DNA of 36,156 bases from an uncultured Bacilli bacterium (GCA_947591575.1 CANQDI010000003.1:1-36156), one strand, 5' to 3'. Shown: positions 29,877 to 36,156, numbered from the stretch's first letter. Program-made: numbers and translations. Notes: generated by a model not told the origin, from the sequence alone.

Positions 29877-30683
29877 TTACTTTTGTTCCTTTAAAGGCTC
29901 TACGTTTGGTACTTCTACTACAGGAATCGTTACAGGATTTGTTGATGGCGGCACTGGTTGAGAAGGAGAAAGAGGGGGTACTGGTATAGATACTTGCGTT
30001 TCATTTTGTGTCGTAGGTTGAGGAATGACAGGAGTTGGAATAGACACTTCAGGTGTTGACACCATCGTAGTTCCTTCTGCACTATCCGTTGTAATTGGAT
30101 TCACTTCCGGAATTGATTCTGAAACAGGTTGAATAGGAGAAGGTATTTCTGGGGGAACGGGAGCTGAATCTCTAACTTCTTCTATAGTAGGTTCGACAAC
30201 AGGAATGGTTGGAATAGATGGAGGAGGTGTCACAACAGGTGTAGAAACTTGATTAGAAGAGATAGGCTCACTAATAGGTGAAACTGCTACTGGAGGAGTC
30301 ACTTCAGCAACAGGAGTTACAATTGTATTTTGTGCTTCTGTTAACACATTAGTCGAAGGAATTGATTCTGGTGGAGACATTGGAGAGACTACTGATACTT
30401 GAGGGGGAACAGGAATATTTGAGATAGGAGTTTGTTCGACTGGTGTTGAAAGGGGAACTTCTGCTGCCTGAGTCCCAGTAACTTCCTCTATAGTAGCTGC
30501 TTTTTGAGAAGAAGCATCTACTGTTGCATACTTTTCTTTCTCTTTCTTATCCTTGAGCTTTCTTTCTGCTAAATAACCAATACACGCAAAAAGTAAAATG
30601 ACACATAAAACAACCGTTGCAATATATAAAGGGCCATCTAAAGTATCCCTAAAAAAATAAATTATTTTATCCATTTTCTTCAC
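29877..30683 (-). CDS. Membrane-anchored Pro/Thr/Val-rich low-complexity protein
   Basis: GTG start, one TM, then ~200 aa of P/T/S/V/E-rich sequence. Confidence 0.7.
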   Translation of the reverse strand: MKKMDKIIYFFRDTLDGPLYIATVVLCVILLFACIGYLAERKLKDKKEKEKYATVDASSQKAATIEEVTGTQAAEVPLSTPVEQTPISNIPVPPQVSVVSPMSPPESIPSTNVLTEAQNTIVTPVAEVTPPVAVSPISEPISSNQVSTPVVTPPPSIPTIPVVEPTIEEVRDSAPVPPEIPSPIQPVSESIPEVNPITTDSAEGTTMVSTPEVSIPTPVIPQPTTQNETQVSIPVPPLSPSQPVPPSTNPVTIPVVEVPNVEPLKEQK

Positions 30684-30779: not shown

Positions 30780-31379
30780 TTATTTATAATGTTGATTCGC
30801 ATACGAAAAATTGGCAATTTCAAAAAAGTTCTCTAAGTATTTCCTTTTATCATCTTTATTATTCAAATAATATGCATGTTCCCACATATCCGTACAAAAT
30901 AAAGGTAGATACCCATATTGTAAGGGATTATCTTGATTCATTGTCGTAATGATTTCAATATTATCTTTACCCGTTTTAACAAGAAATACATAGCCCGACC
31001 CTTTTATATTAAGGGCATACTCTATCCATTTTTCTTTCATCTTATCAAAGCTTCCAAATTTTTGATTGATAGCTTCTTTTAGTGGACCTGTGGGAAGTTC
31101 TTTATTTTTAGGATTGATAGATTGCCAATATAAATCATGATTTAAAACACCACCTAAATAAAAAAGCAACTGATTTTGTTCTTTAGGTGCAAATGAGGAT
31201 AAATGATGATATAGTTCTTCCATAGGATAAGAAAAAGAAAAAGCATTTTTTAAAAGTAACTGATTGAGTTGATTTAAATAATTTCTTTGATGTTTCTGAT
31301 AATGTAGTCCCATCGTATGAGTATCAATAAATGGTTCTAAATCCTGATATAAAAATGGTAATGATTTTAATGAATACAT
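30780..31379 (-). CDS. sodA: Fe/Mn superoxide dismutase (Mn-type signature)
   Basis: LEPFID..TM.LHYQKH, GG..NHDLYW, NQDNP, DMWEHAYY. Confidence 0.88.
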   Translation of the reverse strand: MYSLKSLPFLYQDLEPFIDTHTMGLHYQKHQRNYLNQLNQLLLKNAFSFSYPMEELYHHLSSFAPKEQNQLLFYLGGVLNHDLYWQSINPKNKELPTGPLKEAINQKFGSFDKMKEKWIEYALNIKGSGYVFLVKTGKDNIEIITTMNQDNPLQYGYLPLFCTDMWEHAYYLNNKDDKRKYLENFFEIANFSYANQHYK

Positions 31380-31434
31380 ATAACCTCCACTTTATCATAT
31401 GATAACAAAAAAAAAGAAAGAACCTTTTTATTTC

Positions 31435-32151
31435 TCATTTTTGTTTGGCATAAGAAGATGCTTCTTTTAAAAAACGTTTTAAAATAAGCGATGCATATTG
31501 ATCATAGGAAATCATACTTTCTGGATGCCACTGAACACCTAAAACAAACCGTTTATGAGGATCCTCTATTGCTTCTATTAATCCATCTTCTGAATAACCA
31601 CAAATTTTTAAATGATTGATTTTCTCCGCATGATAACGATGTCTACTATTTACCTTTATTGTATCTACTTTTACAATATCACTTAACAAAGTATCCTTTA
31701 CAATATTGACTTCATGTACATACTGTTTTTCTCGATCATTATGATTGATTTTAGTATCATTTATCACTGTGTTATCATATGCGATATCTTTCATATTGCA
31801 ATCCATTTTTGCCATCATTTGCATTCCTAAACAAATTCCTAAAATCGGCATATTAAGTGCAAGAGCTTCCTGATAAATATACTCATCATAAGCTTCCCAC
31901 TTATATCCTCCTTGTAATAAAAGGCCATCACATAGACTTAATATTTTTTGAATATCTGCTTTTTCCTCGTTATAAGATTTCTTTAAATCTATAGTAAGAT
32001 GTTTTGGTACTAATAAAATAGGAATCCCGCCTTCTTCATCAATACTTTTTTGAATATGTTCCCACATGCAAAATGCCTTGTCATGATCCCATAGCTCATC
32101 AAATCTTCCTACAACACCAATTATTGGTTTAAAACAATTCATGAATATCAT
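31435..32151 (-). CDS. Gamma-glutamyl-gamma-aminobutyrate hydrolase family (peptidase C26)
   Basis: DGLLLQGG, PILGICLGMQ (Cys), VNSRH, GVQWHPE. Confidence 0.85.
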   Translation of the reverse strand: MIFMNCFKPIIGVVGRFDELWDHDKAFCMWEHIQKSIDEEGGIPILLVPKHLTIDLKKSYNEEKADIQKILSLCDGLLLQGGYKWEAYDEYIYQEALALNMPILGICLGMQMMAKMDCNMKDIAYDNTVINDTKINHNDREKQYVHEVNIVKDTLLSDIVKVDTIKVNSRHRYHAEKINHLKICGYSEDGLIEAIEDPHKRFVLGVQWHPESMISYDQYASLILKRFLKEASSYAKQK

Positions 32152-32275
32152 CTCCTTTCAATTTATTTTATGAAATAGGTCTACAAGATTACTATATTTA
32201 TTACATATTATTTGTCTTAGAATAAAGTTAAATGAATGATAACAAGAAAAAGAGGACAGGAAACGTCATTGTGAA

Positions 32276-32304
32276 CCTAAGAGAAGAAGTATGACAACTA
32301 TTTT
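32276..32304. repeat. Half copy of array repeat R at the array/core junction
   Basis: CCTAAGAGAAGAAGTATGACAACTATTTT is 25/29 identical to 35175-35203. Confidence 0.7.
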
Positions 32305-32429
32305 TACTTAAATAATAATAGAAAATATTAAAAAAGACAGTCGAAATTATGCTATAGTTGCAACAATGTAAAGAGTGTTTTTTAATTATCAAAAGATAAG
32401 GTATCTTTTTGGTCAATTAACATAGTAAT

Positions 32430-32936
32430 CTACATTTTCTTTAAAACTTTCTGGTTCTCTAATTCAATATGTTTTTCTACGATTATGCCAGCCAAAAATA
32501 TTAAATTATGGATTCCATCTATAGAAATAGTTTCTTCGTCTTCTACATTATTTTTTAAACTAATTATTTTTATTTCACTAAATATATTAGGATCTATCCT
32601 CTGTTCCTTTGGAATAAAATATACATAACCAATTGTTACTCTTTTATTATTTTCTTCAGATATTTTTTGGGCCATTGTTTTAGTTTTATCCATCTCATCT
32701 TTGGAAAAATAATCAGATCCATCTAACAATATAAAATCACAATTTTTAGGAATATCTTCTTTTCTCAACCGTGTGTACGCAGTTCCACTACCAAAAATAT
32801 AGGCATGAAAATTATCATATTTTCTTTCTAGTATTGTAAACTGGCTCCAATAGGCATTATGTGCCATAAGCATAAAACTTGTGTTTACTCCGTTGTTCAA
32901 TCTTTTTATAAAAGGATTATTTTCTATAGTATTCAA
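32430..32936 (-). CDS. Hypothetical protein (array gene)
   Basis: Frame is open to 33044, but TTG at 32936 with a GGGGGA RBS is the likelier start; ends KVLKKM. Confidence 0.6.
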   Translation of the reverse strand: MNTIENNPFIKRLNNGVNTSFMLMAHNAYWSQFTILERKYDNFHAYIFGSGTAYTRLRKEDIPKNCDFILLDGSDYFSKDEMDKTKTMAQKISEENNKRVTIGYVYFIPKEQRIDPNIFSEIKIISLKNNVEDEETISIDGIHNLIFLAGIIVEKHIELENQKVLKKM

Positions 32937-33139
32937 ACAAAATCCCCCAATCAATATTATAATATTATTTTTAAAGTTATTTATAATAATGGGCATATTA
33001 TATACCGCCATTAATCCTGTTCCACCAATCATAGAAATCATCATAAAATCTCTAACTTTTTGAAATCTGTATCTAATTTTCCAAAATTTTTCTTGTAAAA
33101 CTTTTTTCAGTAATAGTTATACATATTTTTTCTTTTGGT

Positions 33140-33478
33140 CTAAAATTTCACTGATTTTTTCAATACCTTTTCTAAAAATATTTTATTTTCAAATGTTCCC
33201 TTTTTTGTTCCTTTTTCTTGTGCGATAGCAATAACTTCCTCTAATGTTGCATTTTCTAATCTAGCTAAATATTTCATTATTTCTAACATATCGGCTAACT
33301 CTTCTATTCTATCCTTTCCAGTTGCGTTTAAAACTTCTTGATATTCCTCATTTAATTTTTTTTCTAGTTCAACTTTATATTCTTCATCAGTTAGAATTCT
33401 AGTAATTGGTTCTTCATCATTTGATTTAATTATTTCAGGTATCTTATCTCTTACCAATTTATTATATATTTGTTCCAT
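33140..33478 (-). CDS. MazG-like / phosphoribosyl-ATP pyrophosphohydrolase-like NTP pyrophosphatase
   Basis: YNKLVRDKIP, KL.EE..E, EELADMLE, K..KKG.F..KIFL. Confidence 0.82.
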   Translation of the reverse strand: MEQIYNKLVRDKIPEIIKSNDEEPITRILTDEEYKVELEKKLNEEYQEVLNATGKDRIEELADMLEIMKYLARLENATLEEVIAIAQEKGTKKGTFENKIFLEKVLKKSVKF

Positions 33479-33509
33479 ATTTTATCTCCTCTTTCTATAT
33501 TGATATTGT

Positions 33510-33540
33510 TAATATGTAGGTGTATTTTCTAGTTTGACAA
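33510..33540. repeat. 31-bp box P, copy 1
   Basis: TAATATGTAGGTGTATTTTCTAGTTTGACAA, 31 nt upstream of the ATG at 33478. Confidence 0.7.
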
Positions 33541-33566
33541 GAGTCAATTTCAAACTATAAATAGTT

Positions 33567-33654
33567 TATCATAAATCGAAAGATCTTAAAACTCGAACTA
33601 TAAAAGTCCAAATTTTCTATCACCTAGTGCCCTAAAGGAAAGAGTATGACAACT
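33567..33654. repeat. Array repeat R, copy A
   Basis: Shares an exact 24-mer TTAAAACTCGAACTATAAAAGTCC with copy C, plus GTGCCCT and GACAACT; abuts the stop codon at 33655. Confidence 0.85.
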
Positions 33655-34158
33655 TTATTTAATCAATTTTTTACAGATATTTGTAAAATTATTTTGATAG
33701 TTCTGACATTTTAAAAACATTGAACTAAATGCTGAAGCTATTATTTCATTTTTACTACCACTTAAACAAAAACAAATAGGACATAAAAACTTGTTATTAA
33801 ATTCTCGATTAGGATTTTGATAAAATCTAATAGAAAAAGTATTATTTTGAAATGTAATTATTAATTTATTCGCTTTTTCGTAAATTCCGTAATCTTCACT
33901 ATCCCATGTAAAAATATTATTAATTAGTGTTTTATTATAGGGATCATCGTATTTTTGAATAATTTTAAACAATTGCTGCATCTTAGAAAATAGAAAAGAA
34001 TCGTCTTCAGTCACATTAAATTCGTTATGTTCATCATAATGTAACATAATCCAATAAAAATCAGCTCCACTAAATTGCATTAGAAAACTTTGGTTTTTAT
34101 CATTTTTTAACTCAATCGAGCATCTTCGATTACTATCTTCTATTTTATTGATTTCCAT
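33655..34158 (-). CDS. Hypothetical protein (array gene)
   Basis: 167 aa; AAGGAG RBS; ends KKLIK. Confidence 0.7.
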   Translation of the reverse strand: MEINKIEDSNRRCSIELKNDKNQSFLMQFSGADFYWIMLHYDEHNEFNVTEDDSFLFSKMQQLFKIIQKYDDPYNKTLINNIFTWDSEDYGIYEKANKLIITFQNNTFSIRFYQNPNREFNNKFLCPICFCLSGSKNEIIASAFSSMFLKCQNYQNNFTNICKKLIK

Positions 34159-34192
34159 TTAAAAAATCACTCCTTATGTATATTGTCTTTGT

Positions 34193-34223
34193 CAATACGT
34201 AAGTATGTTTTCTAAGTTGACAG
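34193..34223. repeat. 31-bp box P, copy 2
   Basis: CAATACGTAAGTATGTTTTCTAAGTTGACAG, 27/31 identical to copy 3; 34 nt upstream of the ATG. Confidence 0.8.
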
Positions 34224-34313
34224 AGAATAATTATTATAGATATCAATGGAATTTAAAAAAGGGCATCCTTAACATATTCATCATAACCTGAAGAAGAACT
34301 TTTTGCAAGTTCT

Positions 34314-34372
34314 CTATATTAAAGTTCGAGCAGATTCGTAAATGGTGCGATTATGTAAGATATCTACAACTT
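34314..34372. repeat. Divergent variant of repeat R (copy B)
   Basis: Keeps AAAGTTCGAG...TGGTGC...ACAACT at nearly the same spacing as copies A and C. Confidence 0.6.
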
Positions 34373-34390
34373 ATAATAAACTTATAATTA

Positions 34391-35017
34391 TTACTTTTTT
34401 AATTTTTTTATAGAATTATTTTGTAATAAATCTTGATACTCTCCAGTTTTAGATACAATATTATATGGATGTGATTGTCTAAAAAGTTTACGTTCTTCTT
34501 GAGGCATTTCCAATACCTCATCCGCTATATCTATATGTAATATACCATCTAAGTGATCCATCTCATGCGATAAAACAGTTGATTCAAATCTTTCAAAAAT
34601 CTCTCTATGTTTTTCTCCATCCATATCAAAATATTCAACTAAAATTTTATATGGTCTTTTTACATGTCCCATAAAGTCCAAACAACTAGCACAAGCTTCC
34701 CAATAATCAGTAAGACCATATCTTTCAATAATCACTGGATTGATTAACACTCTTGCTTCATTATAATTTTCTTCATTTTCAGTAGTTTCGTTTTTCTGCA
34801 TTTTATTAATAATGTCCAAATTTGTATTTTTGAGATATACAAGTCTTTTTGGAATTCCAAGTTGTACAGCAGCCATTGCCATTACTTCATTTTCCTTACA
34901 AAACTCTGCTAGCACATTAATATTATTCTTCAAATTTTTGTCATTTAAATTAACCTTGGCGGAAACTTGTCTCAAATATTTTTCATTATCTTTTATTGTA
35001 ATTGCTTTTATTTTCAT
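34391..35017 (-). CDS. def: Divergent peptide deformylase
   Basis: MAMAAVQLG, LINP, EACAS and HEMDHLDG correspond to PDF motifs 1-3; ends IKKLKK. Confidence 0.88.
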   Translation of the reverse strand: MKIKAITIKDNEKYLRQVSAKVNLNDKNLKNNINVLAEFCKENEVMAMAAVQLGIPKRLVYLKNTNLDIINKMQKNETTENEENYNEARVLINPVIIERYGLTDYWEACASCLDFMGHVKRPYKILVEYFDMDGEKHREIFERFESTVLSHEMDHLDGILHIDIADEVLEMPQEERKLFRQSHPYNIVSKTGEYQDLLQNNSIKKLKK

Positions 35018-35050
35018 ATTTAATTTCTCCCTTCAGAATATTGCTCATTT

Positions 35051-35081
35051 CAATATGCAAGTATGTTTTCTAAATTGACAA
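35051..35081. repeat. 31-bp box P, copy 3
   Basis: CAATATGCAAGTATGTTTTCTAAATTGACAA, 33 nt upstream of the def ATG. Confidence 0.8.
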
Positions 35082-35109
35082 ATATATCAATTAAAATCTA
35101 CAAAAATTA

Positions 35110-35198
35110 TATAATAAATTTAAAGATTTTAAAACTCGAACTATAAAAGTCCGAGTTTCATATTAATCTGGTGCCCTCAGGGAAGACGTACGACAACT
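35110..35198. repeat. Array repeat R, copy C (most intact)
   Basis: Internal inverted repeat AAACTCGAACT-ATAAA-AGTCCGAGTTT, then TGGTGCCCTCAGGGAAGACGTACGACAACT. Confidence 0.85.
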
Positions 35199-35229
35199 AT
35201 TTTCTTTGTTAACACGCATATAATTTTGA

Positions 35230-35260
35230 CAATTTGCAAGTGTGTTTTCTATATTAACAA
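35230..35260. repeat. 31-bp box P, copy 4 (no gene downstream)
   Basis: CAATTTGCAAGTGTGTTTTCTATATTAACAA. Confidence 0.65.
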
Positions 35261-35276
35261 AGTAAAATTATTCCAA

Positions 35277-36095
35277 TTATTTTTGTTTATTTTCTATCTT
35301 TTTTACAAGTCTTTTTAATAACATTTGTTTATGCTTATAATCATCGTTAATTATTTCATTGCTTCTACTTTGTTCGGTATCTGCAAGTGTTTTATATCCA
35401 TCTTCTATAGTATCAATATTTATTAAAATAAATTGTTCTTTTAGTTTTTCTAACTCTTCAAATGAGATTTCATCAATTTTATTTTCTATTTGATAATTAA
35501 TTACAGAATCAATAAAGCATTTAACATATGGGAACCCTTTAAAACTTATATTTTGATTAACTCTACACATTCCATCTGTCTTATAAAATGATAATTCATT
35601 AGGCCATTTACTTTGTGACCATTCATCACATAATTTAATTGCTAAACCATTTTTCAATAAATAATTAATATATCTTGCTTGTACTCTTCTAGGATCTTTA
35701 ATTTTTTCAATTATATCCTTTGACATAATCATAAAAATATTCCAAAAAGCTGCAGGCGACTCACCATCAACATGATATAATAAACTTTGTGGAACATAAG
35801 TTTTTCCTTCAAAAGTACTAATAAGTTCACTCAAAACTATACTAATATCTTCTCTATTTAAAATAGAATATTTTTCTATAAGATTGCAATAATTATATGT
35901 TTCAATATATGCAAATTCAAACTCATTCTCATATTTTCGATCTAAACTTGCATATTTTTCTTCAATTTTTTGTATTGCCTCTTTAATTTCTTGTTCTTTA
36001 CTACTATTTAAATCTTTTCTAGATTGTAATAAACTACTTTTTCTATTTCTTAATTTACTCAAACTTGCATTAAAATCCACTTTCAAAACCTCCAT
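35277..36095 (-). CDS. Hypothetical coiled-coil protein (array gene)
   Basis: 272-aa ORF; probable GTG start at 36080 after GGAGG; ends KRLVKKIENKQK. Confidence 0.7.
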   Translation of the reverse strand: MEVLKVDFNASLSKLRNRKSSLLQSRKDLNSSKEQEIKEAIQKIEEKYASLDRKYENEFEFAYIETYNYCNLIEKYSILNREDISIVLSELISTFEGKTYVPQSLLYHVDGESPAAFWNIFMIMSKDIIEKIKDPRRVQARYINYLLKNGLAIKLCDEWSQSKWPNELSFYKTDGMCRVNQNISFKGFPYVKCFIDSVINYQIENKIDEISFEELEKLKEQFILINIDTIEDGYKTLADTEQSRSNEIINDDYKHKQMLLKRLVKKIENKQK

Positions 36096-36110
36096 TAAAC
36101 ATGATTATTG

Positions 36111-36156
36111 TATCATAAATTTAAAAATTTTAAAACTTGAACTATAAAAGTCCGAG
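36111..36156. repeat. Array repeat R, copy E (cut by the window edge)
   Basis: 43/46 identical to 35110-35155. Confidence 0.85.

Follow-up and report, generated by a model that had tools for sequence, protein, structure and literature searches.

The window analysed in the current work (the whole stretch of DNA, 36,156 bp) corresponds to the entire contig C3 from the genome assembly of an uncultured Bacilli bacterium (950,836 bp in 73 contigs, with a completeness of 95.9%). The G+C content is ~26-33% across the contigs of this assembly, being 30% for C3, and genome sizes in the bacterial family concerned are ~0.8-1.3 Mb. The region 32270-36156 contains five open reading frames (ORFs) on the minus strand (272, 208, 167, 112 and 204 aa, spanning 32430-36095) punctuated by a non-coding repeat, and was described as an integron-like cassette array in an earlier interpretation made from the sequence alone (named the sequence-only reading). 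It is interpreted here, with a probability of roughly 0.7, as the distal part of a tandem array in which four recombinase-less integrative cassettes would have accreted behind a tRNA gene, being moved in trans by a large serine recombinase (LSR).

Cassettes are numbered along the gene strand, starting from the contig end, and all features given below are on the minus strand. Pfam names a family for two of the five ORFs only. The cassette 1 gene (35277-36095, 272 aa) has no family in Pfam or NCBIfam, with 31% amino acid matches in loci L169 and L117. The cassette 2 gene (34391-35017, 208 aa) encodes a divergent peptide deformylase (Pfam E 1.6e-32), which scores under the NCBIfam equivalog cut-offs; NCBIfam names nothing more in the window, and another def-like gene is present on contig C30. 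The cassette 3 gene (33655-34158, 167 aa) is also without a family in Pfam or NCBIfam, and cassette 4 holds a MazG/PRA-PH-like gene (33140-33478, 112 aa) followed by a gene with no family in Pfam (32430-33044, 204 aa). The five minus-strand genes and the deformylase of the sequence-only reading are therefore retained, the MazG-like label being a weak call (Pfam E 0.0049) because its 17.7 bits lie under the cut-off of 21.3. No end motif is found between the two genes of cassette 4, and the 204-aa gene is either the second gene of this cassette or the remainder of a fused one.

Joints of two halves meeting at CCA

On the gene strand, the intergenic layout consists of a 28-31-nt block (AAGTTGT...CACCA), followed by a spacer and hairpin, and then by a box named P (TTGTCAATTTAGAAAACAYACTTGCATATTG). 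The "88-bp repeat" of the sequence-only reading is a hybrid joint, in which the right end of one cassette meets the left end of the next one. The right-end block (named pseudo-end) is either of type [a] (GTTGTYRTACKYCTTCYYTWRGGGCACCA) or of type [b] (GTTGTAGATAWCT...TCRCACCA). The left end is either T1, being GATTGATAGGAAACTCGGACT-loop-AGTTCGAGTTTTAAAAT followed by a TGnTATAAT-like box, or T2, being TTGACGAATCTGTTCGAAC... followed by another hairpin, the T spacer having a length of ~10 nt. In this genome and its relatives, real tRNA ends, [a] and [b] pair with T1, T2 or unrelated sequence in all combinations, and the sequence similarity between joints breaks off to the base after CCA. The length of a pseudo-end is that of a tRNA T arm, acceptor 3' strand and NCCA taken together (28-31 nt), and pseudo-ends differ from the tRNA heading their array beyond ~5-7 nt, as illustrated by [a] on contig C10, which is unlike the tRNA-Arg(tct) of that array.

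Following the window array from the contig end, cassette 1 begins with a T1 left end (36096-36156, nhmmer E 5e-09) that contains the hairpin and a TGnTACAAT box and is cut by the contig end. Because the contig end falls inside this copy of the repeat (copy E), the assembly broke on the repeat, the CCA joint before cassette 1 and the head of the array lying beyond the window. The right end of cassette 1 is a pseudo-tRNA 3' end of type [a] (35169-35197, 1 mismatch, ...GGGCACCA), which is joined at 35169/35168 to the T1 left end of cassette 2 (35106-35168; spacer, 11-bp hairpin and -10-like box), followed by the P box of the same cassette (35040-35080; TTGTCA-18-CATATT, repeat families D1/D4). 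Cassette 2 terminates with a [b] end (34343-34370, 0 mismatches, GTTGTAGATATC...TCGCACCA), joined at 34343/34342 to the T2 left end of cassette 3 (34287-34342, retrieved by motif search; TTTACGAATCTGCTCGAAC and the second hairpin), the P box of which is located at 34169-34226 (nhmmer E 3e-11). The [a] end of cassette 3 (33625-33653, 2 mismatches, ending ...GGGCACTA) meets at 33625/33624 the T1 left end of cassette 4 (33563-33624; degenerate hairpin and TGATAAACT box), with a P box retrieved by repeat search at 33497-33540. The array is closed by a terminal [a] end (32270-32298, 4 mismatches, ...CTTAGGTTCACA), past which a degenerate T2-like sequence (ATGACGTTTCC) is followed by a core peptidase-C26 gene. 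The P box precedes the start codon by 20-40 nt in every window cassette except cassette 1. An orphan P box (35222-35262, repeat family D1) is present between the 272-aa ORF and its right end; it points into the [a] end of cassette 1 and may be either what is left of a lost cassette or a short transcript.

Using repeat family D2 and an nhmmer profile, copies of the repeat were retrieved where the sequence-only reading had placed them, copy C (between cassettes 1 and 2) with E 2.9e-47 and copy A (between cassettes 3 and 4) with E 1.1e-39. As described by that reading, copy A adjoins a stop codon (it ends at 33654, at the stop of the 167-aa ORF) and has an exact 24-mer in common with copy C (TTAAAACTCGAACTATAAAAGTCC). 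Compared to the reference copy 35106-35155, the sequence 33563-33612 is 84% identical and 36107-36156 is 92% identical, so that the likeness of copies C and E is retained with a figure of 46/50 instead of the 43/46 previously given. The hairpin previously described in the repeat is recovered by DNA folding in copy C (11-bp stem, z -2.47) and is unclear in copy A (z +0.98). When actual and reversed patterns are counted in the genome, the motifs occur 8/0 ([a]), 3/0 ([b]), 11/1 (T1), 9/0 (T2) and 7/0 (P) times; these counts and the nhmmer E-values argue against a chance origin of the repeat. The terminal half-copy 32270-32298, the P box as a separate repeat, the composition of the joint from two halves and the contig break inside copy E had been overlooked, and the anchoring target, tRNA CCA, was not among the earlier observations.

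When ≤3 mismatches are allowed, 35 sites with the [a] 29-mer are counted in 26 of the 151 family genomes, representing 25 of 150 genera, the reversed pattern being found at none, and the copy C repeat is matched in 22/24 other family genomes and in 3/16 genomes outside the family. Since the C26 protein beside the array is only ~50% identical between species of one genus, the 29-mer is so well kept that it must be under strong constraint or have moved between genomes. Rfam gave no match at E ≤1 in the window interval 31000-36156 and matched only the tRNA at a T1 locus. No site passed the terminator scan, which gives no support to the T1 hairpin as a terminator, and the promoter scan (36 sites, 31.5 being expected) is uninformative in such AT-rich DNA. 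Some T1 left ends are directly followed by ~330 nt of conserved non-coding sequence (G000 C6:22925-23290; C20 ~1100-1455; L149:5197-5560; L109; L111), which contains a promoter-like box (TTGTCAAGGAAACTTGCATAAAAT) and a G+C-richer core, has no Rfam match, and may be an element-borne small RNA or leader.

tRNA genes and serine recombinases at the same ends

ARAGORN predicts 29 tRNA genes in the genome, six of which (Leu-caa, Arg-tct, Leu-tag, Leu-taa, Lys-ctt and Thr-ggt) are followed by T1 directly after their CCA, and tRNA-Gly(gcc) is followed by a T2-like sequence. Downstream of such a tRNA-T1 junction, P boxes and 1-4 small ORFs are found, and then [a] or [b] ends. T1 thus follows the CCA of a tRNA in the same way as it follows a pseudo-end, which places the pseudo-ends in the position of a tRNA 3' end. 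Every [a], [b] and P copy of the genome is located inside arrays, on contigs C3, C6, C10, C20, C35 and C43, that either start from the 3' end of a tRNA or are cut by the end of a contig, a few isolated T-type matches being left aside. This distribution is not a pattern of repetitive extragenic palindromes (REP) or miniature inverted-repeat transposable elements (MITE), the scattering that the sequence-only reading had held to be incompatible with its proposal. An origin from REP sequences, their bacterial interspersed mosaic elements (BIME) or an IS200/IS605-style insertion sequence (IS) was also rejected, no PF01797 (Y1) or PF07282 (TnpB) match being present in the assembly.

The arrays are insertions. 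The distance between tRNA-Leu(taa) and tRNA-Ser(tga) is 5-46 nt in 10 of the 20 family loci fetched and ≤201 nt in 13 of them; in this genome it amounts to 1314 nt, the insert being composed of T1 right after CCA, a P box, two ORFs and an [a]-like end. A further insertion, behind the tRNA-Met of genome G021, was rejected as a family member, carrying none of the end motifs.

In the case of the window array, three species of the genus have preserved a common core order of genes (lipoprotein, CdaR, CdaA, membrane protein, (SOD), peptidase C26). The C26 gene is directly beside the next core gene in genome G003. In G005 it is separated from that gene by tRNA-Thr(cgt) with a T2-like left end and by two ORFs, of 125 and 335 aa, with a [b]-like end between them, and in G001 tRNA-Thr(cgt) is found in the opposite orientation, together with a T2 unit ending in [b]. 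According to ARAGORN, tRNA-Thr(cgt) is absent from the present assembly, and our guess is that this tRNA gene constitutes the head of the window array, beyond the contig. The peptidase C26/GATase gene itself (31435-32151) belongs to the syntenic core in the genus and has homologues that are cassette genes elsewhere, i.e. L167:5294-6016, in the order tRNA-Leu(caa), P, 240-aa ORF, [a], and G000 C43:3361-4050, behind tRNA-Lys(ctt) and T1. A 268-aa protein encoded at 29877-30683, whose position is also kept in the genus, has an N-terminal membrane helix and a long low-complexity tail rich in Pro, Thr, Val and Ser.

Annotation of 28 loci fetched around [a] sites revealed as the canonical unit a tRNA-T1 junction, P, 1-3 ORFs and an [a] end joined to the next unit. 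On contig C7 of genome G059 (loci L160 and L159), the same type of ends bounds an element of ~6.8 kb, which runs from tRNA-Leu(caa) and T2 through a 91-aa ORF, a 637-aa protein and further ORFs to a [b]-T1 joint. The 637-aa protein of L160 is an LSR (PF00239 Resolvase, 2.5e-33; PF07508 Recombinase, 4.2e-18), which scores far under the NCBIfam cut-offs for XisF and CcrB (118 bits for CcrB, the cut-off being 900) and has no relative above ~34% identity among deposited phages and plasmids. In this element, the one scanned, a MobV relaxase (Mob_Pre, E 6.7e-10) is present, and among selected proteins Pfam recognises an alpha/beta hydrolase and a NUDIX protein as cargo; the combination of relaxase and LSR suggests that the elements would be integrative mobilizable elements (IMEs).

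Homologues of this LSR (E ≤1e-30) are found in 81 of 151 family genomes, many of them truncated or with internal stops. Forty LSR loci were fetched (the 20 best intact and 20 more distant ones), and in 26 of these the LSR start is preceded, at a distance of 430-1093 nt, by the end of a tRNA gene, the tRNAs being Cys, Thr-cgt, Thr-ggt, Leu-tag, Leu-caa, Leu-gag, Phe, Gly-tcc, Gly-gcc, His, Trp and Met. The spacer-plus-hairpin left end stands directly after CCA in most of these 26 loci, the two being separated by a tRNA-like remnant in L203, and 8 further loci carry a T1/T2 or [b] motif in place of the tRNA. T1 left ends (n=6) accompany LSRs showing 44-51% identity to the query, and T2 accompanies a 55-86% group. 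Within the same genus, genome G002 presents tRNA-Gly(tcc), a T2-like left end, small ORFs and an LSR (57% identical), the contig stopping before the right end of this element.

Three further sequences were observed at such loci. In both elements checked (L160:3127-3402; L209 ~1607-1880), the space from the T left end to the LSR gene holds an ORF of ~90 aa (...IEFICDFCN...), which recurs at L047:6135-6410, there behind the T2 of an LSR-less unit; the L160 copy, the only one scanned, has no Pfam family, and the ORF may encode a regulator or a directionality factor. In L150, the first 13 residues of a 288-aa ORF are those of the ~90-aa ORF, the following part being MobV-fragment-like. In L203 (~938-1010), a tRNA-Gly(gcc)-like sequence without a T arm, located directly before a T-type left end and LSR gene, may represent a damaged target tRNA.

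Units were delimited from the start of T to the next [a] or [b] end (n=49), a few of the [a] calls at 4-5 mismatches in G000 being doubtful. Eight of the 49 contain an LSR; they measure 4864-9548 bp (median 6740), and [b] is the right end of every one. The remaining 41 are LSR-less, with a length of 539-3321 bp (median 982), 30 of them being bounded by T1 and [a], and window units of 826 and 718 bp fall in this small class. T1/T2 and [b] ends therefore bound both LSR elements and the small units, which agrees with the att-type sites of the LSR kind proposed by the sequence-only reading. Its comparison to the tandem accretion at orfX is likewise favoured by the shared ends and by the position of tRNA genes 5' to the LSRs, and its small cassettes served by a recombinase outside the window would be explained, the window units having the ends of LSR elements and holding no recombinase. 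Taken together, these results uphold most of the sequence-only reading.

The same cassettes occur in other genera and at another tRNA. The MazG-like protein of the window is 94.5% identical to one in genome G170, which belongs to another genus (gene, 307/327 nt), where it is encoded by a stand-alone 539-bp cassette (T1, P, gene, [a]) right behind the [b] end of an LSR element. Between the window and G170, the flanks of this gene match at 50/60 positions before the start codon, at 71/103 farther upstream and at 39/109 downstream, where the sequences are unrelated. A cassette encoding a 156-aa protein follows tRNA-Thr(cgt) in G169, and in G167, which belongs to another genus, it occupies the interval separating tRNA-Leu(taa) and tRNA-Ser(tga). 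The two copies match at 424/471 positions in the ORF and at 29/33 over the segment that the stop codon and the [a] end delimit, the likeness being lost past CCA (43/101). A third cassette (275 aa) recurs behind tRNA-Cys and behind a non-tRNA end.

Proposed mobilization and its alternatives

According to the array interpretation, a cassette would be composed of a T1 or T2 left end, a promoter-like P box, 1-2 genes and an [a] or [b] right end. The LSR would recombine a joint ([a] or [b] with T) and either the 3' end of a tRNA or a joint already in place, by means of a crossover within or beside the last ~5 nt (N-CCA), so that the tRNA would be kept intact, a short direct repeat would arise and arrays would grow, the mini-cassettes being mobilised in trans. 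We infer that the LSR is the enzyme, that crossing over takes place at this point and that cassettes are still mobile in this genome today, the assignment of enzyme to site being based on position and co-occurrence. The last 5-7 nt of the right end are those of the tRNA 3' end in all nine LSR elements with a called tRNA and right end, including cases with discriminator T (Gly, Cys) and G (Trp). Among all units, the right end has the discriminator of its tRNA in 8/10 non-A cases, and the last 5 nt are identical at both ends in 30/49 units. As judged from these sequences, the crossover would occur at or just left of the discriminator, or identity may be required there.

Several observations weigh against this interpretation. 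Two of the ten non-A cases break the discriminator rule, and the sample of units is biased, its loci having been chosen by [a] or by LSR. Dyad symmetry around the crossover is expected of LSR sites; around the joint it is weak by eye, as is the symmetry of the "loosely inverted" ~50-bp segment of the sequence-only reading, and the hairpins at the joints are modest. [a] occurs on none of the eight LSR-bearing units, its role as an LSR substrate being an assumption. This genome has no LSR homologue at E ≤1e-30, and the three LSRs that the assembly does encode (C9, C26) share only 23-28% identity with the tRNA-linked clade. As the assembly thus lacks any LSR of that kind, the window array may be dormant, or may be served by an unassembled element. 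Neither an excised circle, nor an empty site, nor strain polymorphism was seen in metagenome contigs and sequencing runs. Finally, the T1 parts of homologous cassettes are only 69% and 51% alike, compared to 80-94% for P and gene, which would not be predicted for a unit always moved from T1 to [a]; these less similar T1 parts fit either gene conversion among T1 copies or homologous recombination.

Candidates for drivers or for excision products were rejected as follows. The genome's own LSRs on C9 and C26 have no tRNA or T, [a] or [b] motif beside them. Two adjacent LSR genes (524 and 540 aa) and a 244-aa ORF, flanked by ~1.5 kb of apparently broken reading frames (G000 C9:19900-25400), probably constitute a decayed and unrelated mobile element. 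In the metagenome contigs scanned, no contig of the same species was found, the best match being 47% identical; the stretch was found, in the form of contigs, in four runs of one rabbit gut metagenome sample, which may be its source. Run joints such as 33655>35052, 34336>35052 and 35260>35084 were not accepted as circles or excision, their sides being 20-37 nt within repeats at 90% likeness. An indel between L053 and L056 in a related species (L053:10920-12667, observed in one metagenome strain) is an IS-like insertion of 1.75 kb with terminal inverted repeats and target duplication, and is unrelated to the repeat.

The low similarity of T1 would be accommodated by a different explanation, in which mini-cassettes are swapped mainly by homologous recombination (e.g. 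following DNA uptake), P/T1 and [a] serving as homology anchors and the LSR elements sharing only the ancestry of the ends. Consistent with this are the blocks of identity, which run from approximately the P box to [a] (83% and 80% in the 60 nt upstream, 69% and 51% farther), together with the lack of [a] on LSR units and of the clade LSR in this genome. However, homology that stops to the base after CCA, with halves in all combinations, suits site-specific exchange better; moreover, one cassette is found behind different tRNAs, and the right ends in L165 and L141 bear the T discriminator of the left neighbour, so that we regard recombination of this kind as unlikely to be the main process.

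The units could alternatively be in-situ remnants of full LSR elements from which recombinase and relaxase were deleted, i.e. cis-mobilizable elements (CIMEs) produced by decay, fixed and no longer self-mobile. Decayed LSR fragments do follow some [a]-T2 joints (L160 6758-6949, L159 1745-2203), the damage seen in many LSR homologues is of the expected kind, cassette 4 has no end between its two genes, and the end motifs of the window are partly degenerate, including the fold of copy A. Random decay would, however, be expected to leave [b] ends and no common P box, whereas 30/41 LSR-less units have the stereotyped T1-P-gene-[a] order and 8/8 LSR units end in [b]; as near-identical single cassettes are also present in different genera, little credence is given to this explanation.

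That the repeat instead serves in regulation or RNA processing, as a module of tRNA-like 3' end, trailer hairpin and promoter spread by duplication and giving mRNAs a processed tRNA-like 3' end, is highly improbable: although the pseudo-end has the length of T arm, acceptor 3' strand and NCCA, the trailer hairpin is the same as behind real tRNAs and a G-T pair seen in the copy C stem on the gene strand becomes an A-C mismatch on the other one, the module has no Rfam match, folding of the pseudo-end yields no T-arm-like hairpin, the terminator scan passed no site, and LSR elements with the same ends and the insertion in a tRNA operon would be left unexplained.

Relation to known systems

The array interpretation has its closest parallel in the staphylococcal cassette chromosome (SCC) at rlmH (orfX), where the LSRs CcrAB and CcrC act at the 3' end of one essential gene that is kept intact, and where SCC and pseudo-SCC elements form tandem stacks split by short direct repeats, recombinase-less units being thought mobile in trans. 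Both systems involve an LSR-type enzyme, a gene 3' end that is not broken by insertion, tandem stacks and recombinase-less units. In contrast to SCC, with its single protein gene as target, many tRNA genes are targeted here, at their CCA end; most cassettes are ~1 kb in size and consist of one gene with its own promoter-like box, and the LSR is not a Ccr.

The arrays resemble integrons in that unrelated, mostly single-gene cassettes of ~0.5-1.3 kb are placed in one orientation with a conserved end site, the recombinase lying outside. Integron cassettes are mostly promoterless and are expressed from Pc, whereas the cassettes described here would be self-promoted (promoter-like box) and the platform is a tRNA gene. 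The term "integron-like" proposed earlier consequently holds by analogy only, since each cassette has its own promoter-like box and neither attC structure nor IntI was retrieved. A search with PF00589 across the whole assembly, in which the head of the array is off-contig, yielded no IntI, the matches being two full-length genes and one fragment, none of them in the window. An attC site is an imperfect palindrome with R''/L''...L'/R' boxes (RYYYAAC...GTTRRRY) that folds into a bulged hairpin. On inspection, GTTGTCG does not conform to GTTRRRY, and neither an inverse core nor R''/R' boxes are recognised; single-strand folds give only a local hairpin in the T half and no attC-type bulged hairpin. 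Tyrosine recombinases were rejected as drivers, the two genes that look XerD-like (beside a deoB-like gene) and XerC-like (beside topA) from their context having no link to the arrays, and a tRNA-targeting island of the tyrosine-integrase type is ruled out by the repeat of ~5-7 nt (instead of ~15-60) and by the LSR at the ends. The tycheposons of Prochlorococcus, in which cargo elements and degraded remnants reportedly pile up downstream of several tRNA genes of a streamlined genome and drive its flexible gene pool, are said to employ tyrosine recombinases and longer partial-tRNA repeats, as opposed to the LSR and very short repeat found here.

Tandem islands at the ssrA gene of Dehalococcoides are described in PMC3146451, which also covers SCC. 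In that account, a CcrB-like serine recombinase (DsiB) located by attL targets the 3' part of the tmRNA gene, and the islands have 20-bp direct repeats, some of them being without an integration module and proposed to be cis-mobilizable. These islands are large and confined to ssrA, with a crossover in the T loop, whereas many tRNAs, ~5-7 shared nt and tiny cassettes are involved here; the tiny cassettes, in addition, have a separate end type, [a], unlike the Dehalococcoides islands. For streptococcal IMEs and CIMEs, PMC5704250 reports site-specific tandem accretion, integrase-less CIMEs that keep attL and attR, and a MobV-type relaxase. Serine-recombinase IMEs are there inserted within dispensable genes and tRNA 3' ends are hit by tyrosine integrases, in contrast to the present serine recombinase family tied to tRNA 3' ends.

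A full-text literature search, with supplements outside its scope, retrieved no serine-recombinase elements at tRNA CCA ends and no such mini-cassettes. The CCA target in many tRNAs, the very short shared sequence and the class of putatively self-promoted one-gene cassettes with their own end would be new relative to the accounts in PMC3146451 and PMC5704250. The site is accordingly filed as an IME/CIME or SCC-like accretion variant, and not as an integron. A stronger version, which we consider a tentative proposal with the odds somewhat against it, is that of a Gram-positive integron analogue. In this version, a dedicated family of self-promoted, recombinase-less T1-P-gene-[a] cassettes of ~1 kb would be captured, stacked and shuffled behind any tRNA gene by an LSR clade that reads T arm/acceptor DNA, crosses at the discriminator/CCA and rebuilds the tRNA end, the cassettes forming a distributed flexible gene pool, anchored at tRNA genes, for gut Bacilli with reduced genomes.

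Serine recombinases are usually described as using one specific site, often inside a gene. If the proposed mechanism holds, a clade landing right after the CCA of at least 12 tRNA genes would be unusual biology, and might supply integrases whose target is "safe" and present universally. Stacks of cassettes at tRNA genes would explain assembly breaks at such places, as exemplified by the end of the window. Single-gene cassettes recur across genera at 90-94% nucleotide identity (n=2), and, if the interpretation is true, tRNA-anchored cassette stacks, present at six or more loci here, may be a main route by which members of this family acquire and exchange accessory genes.

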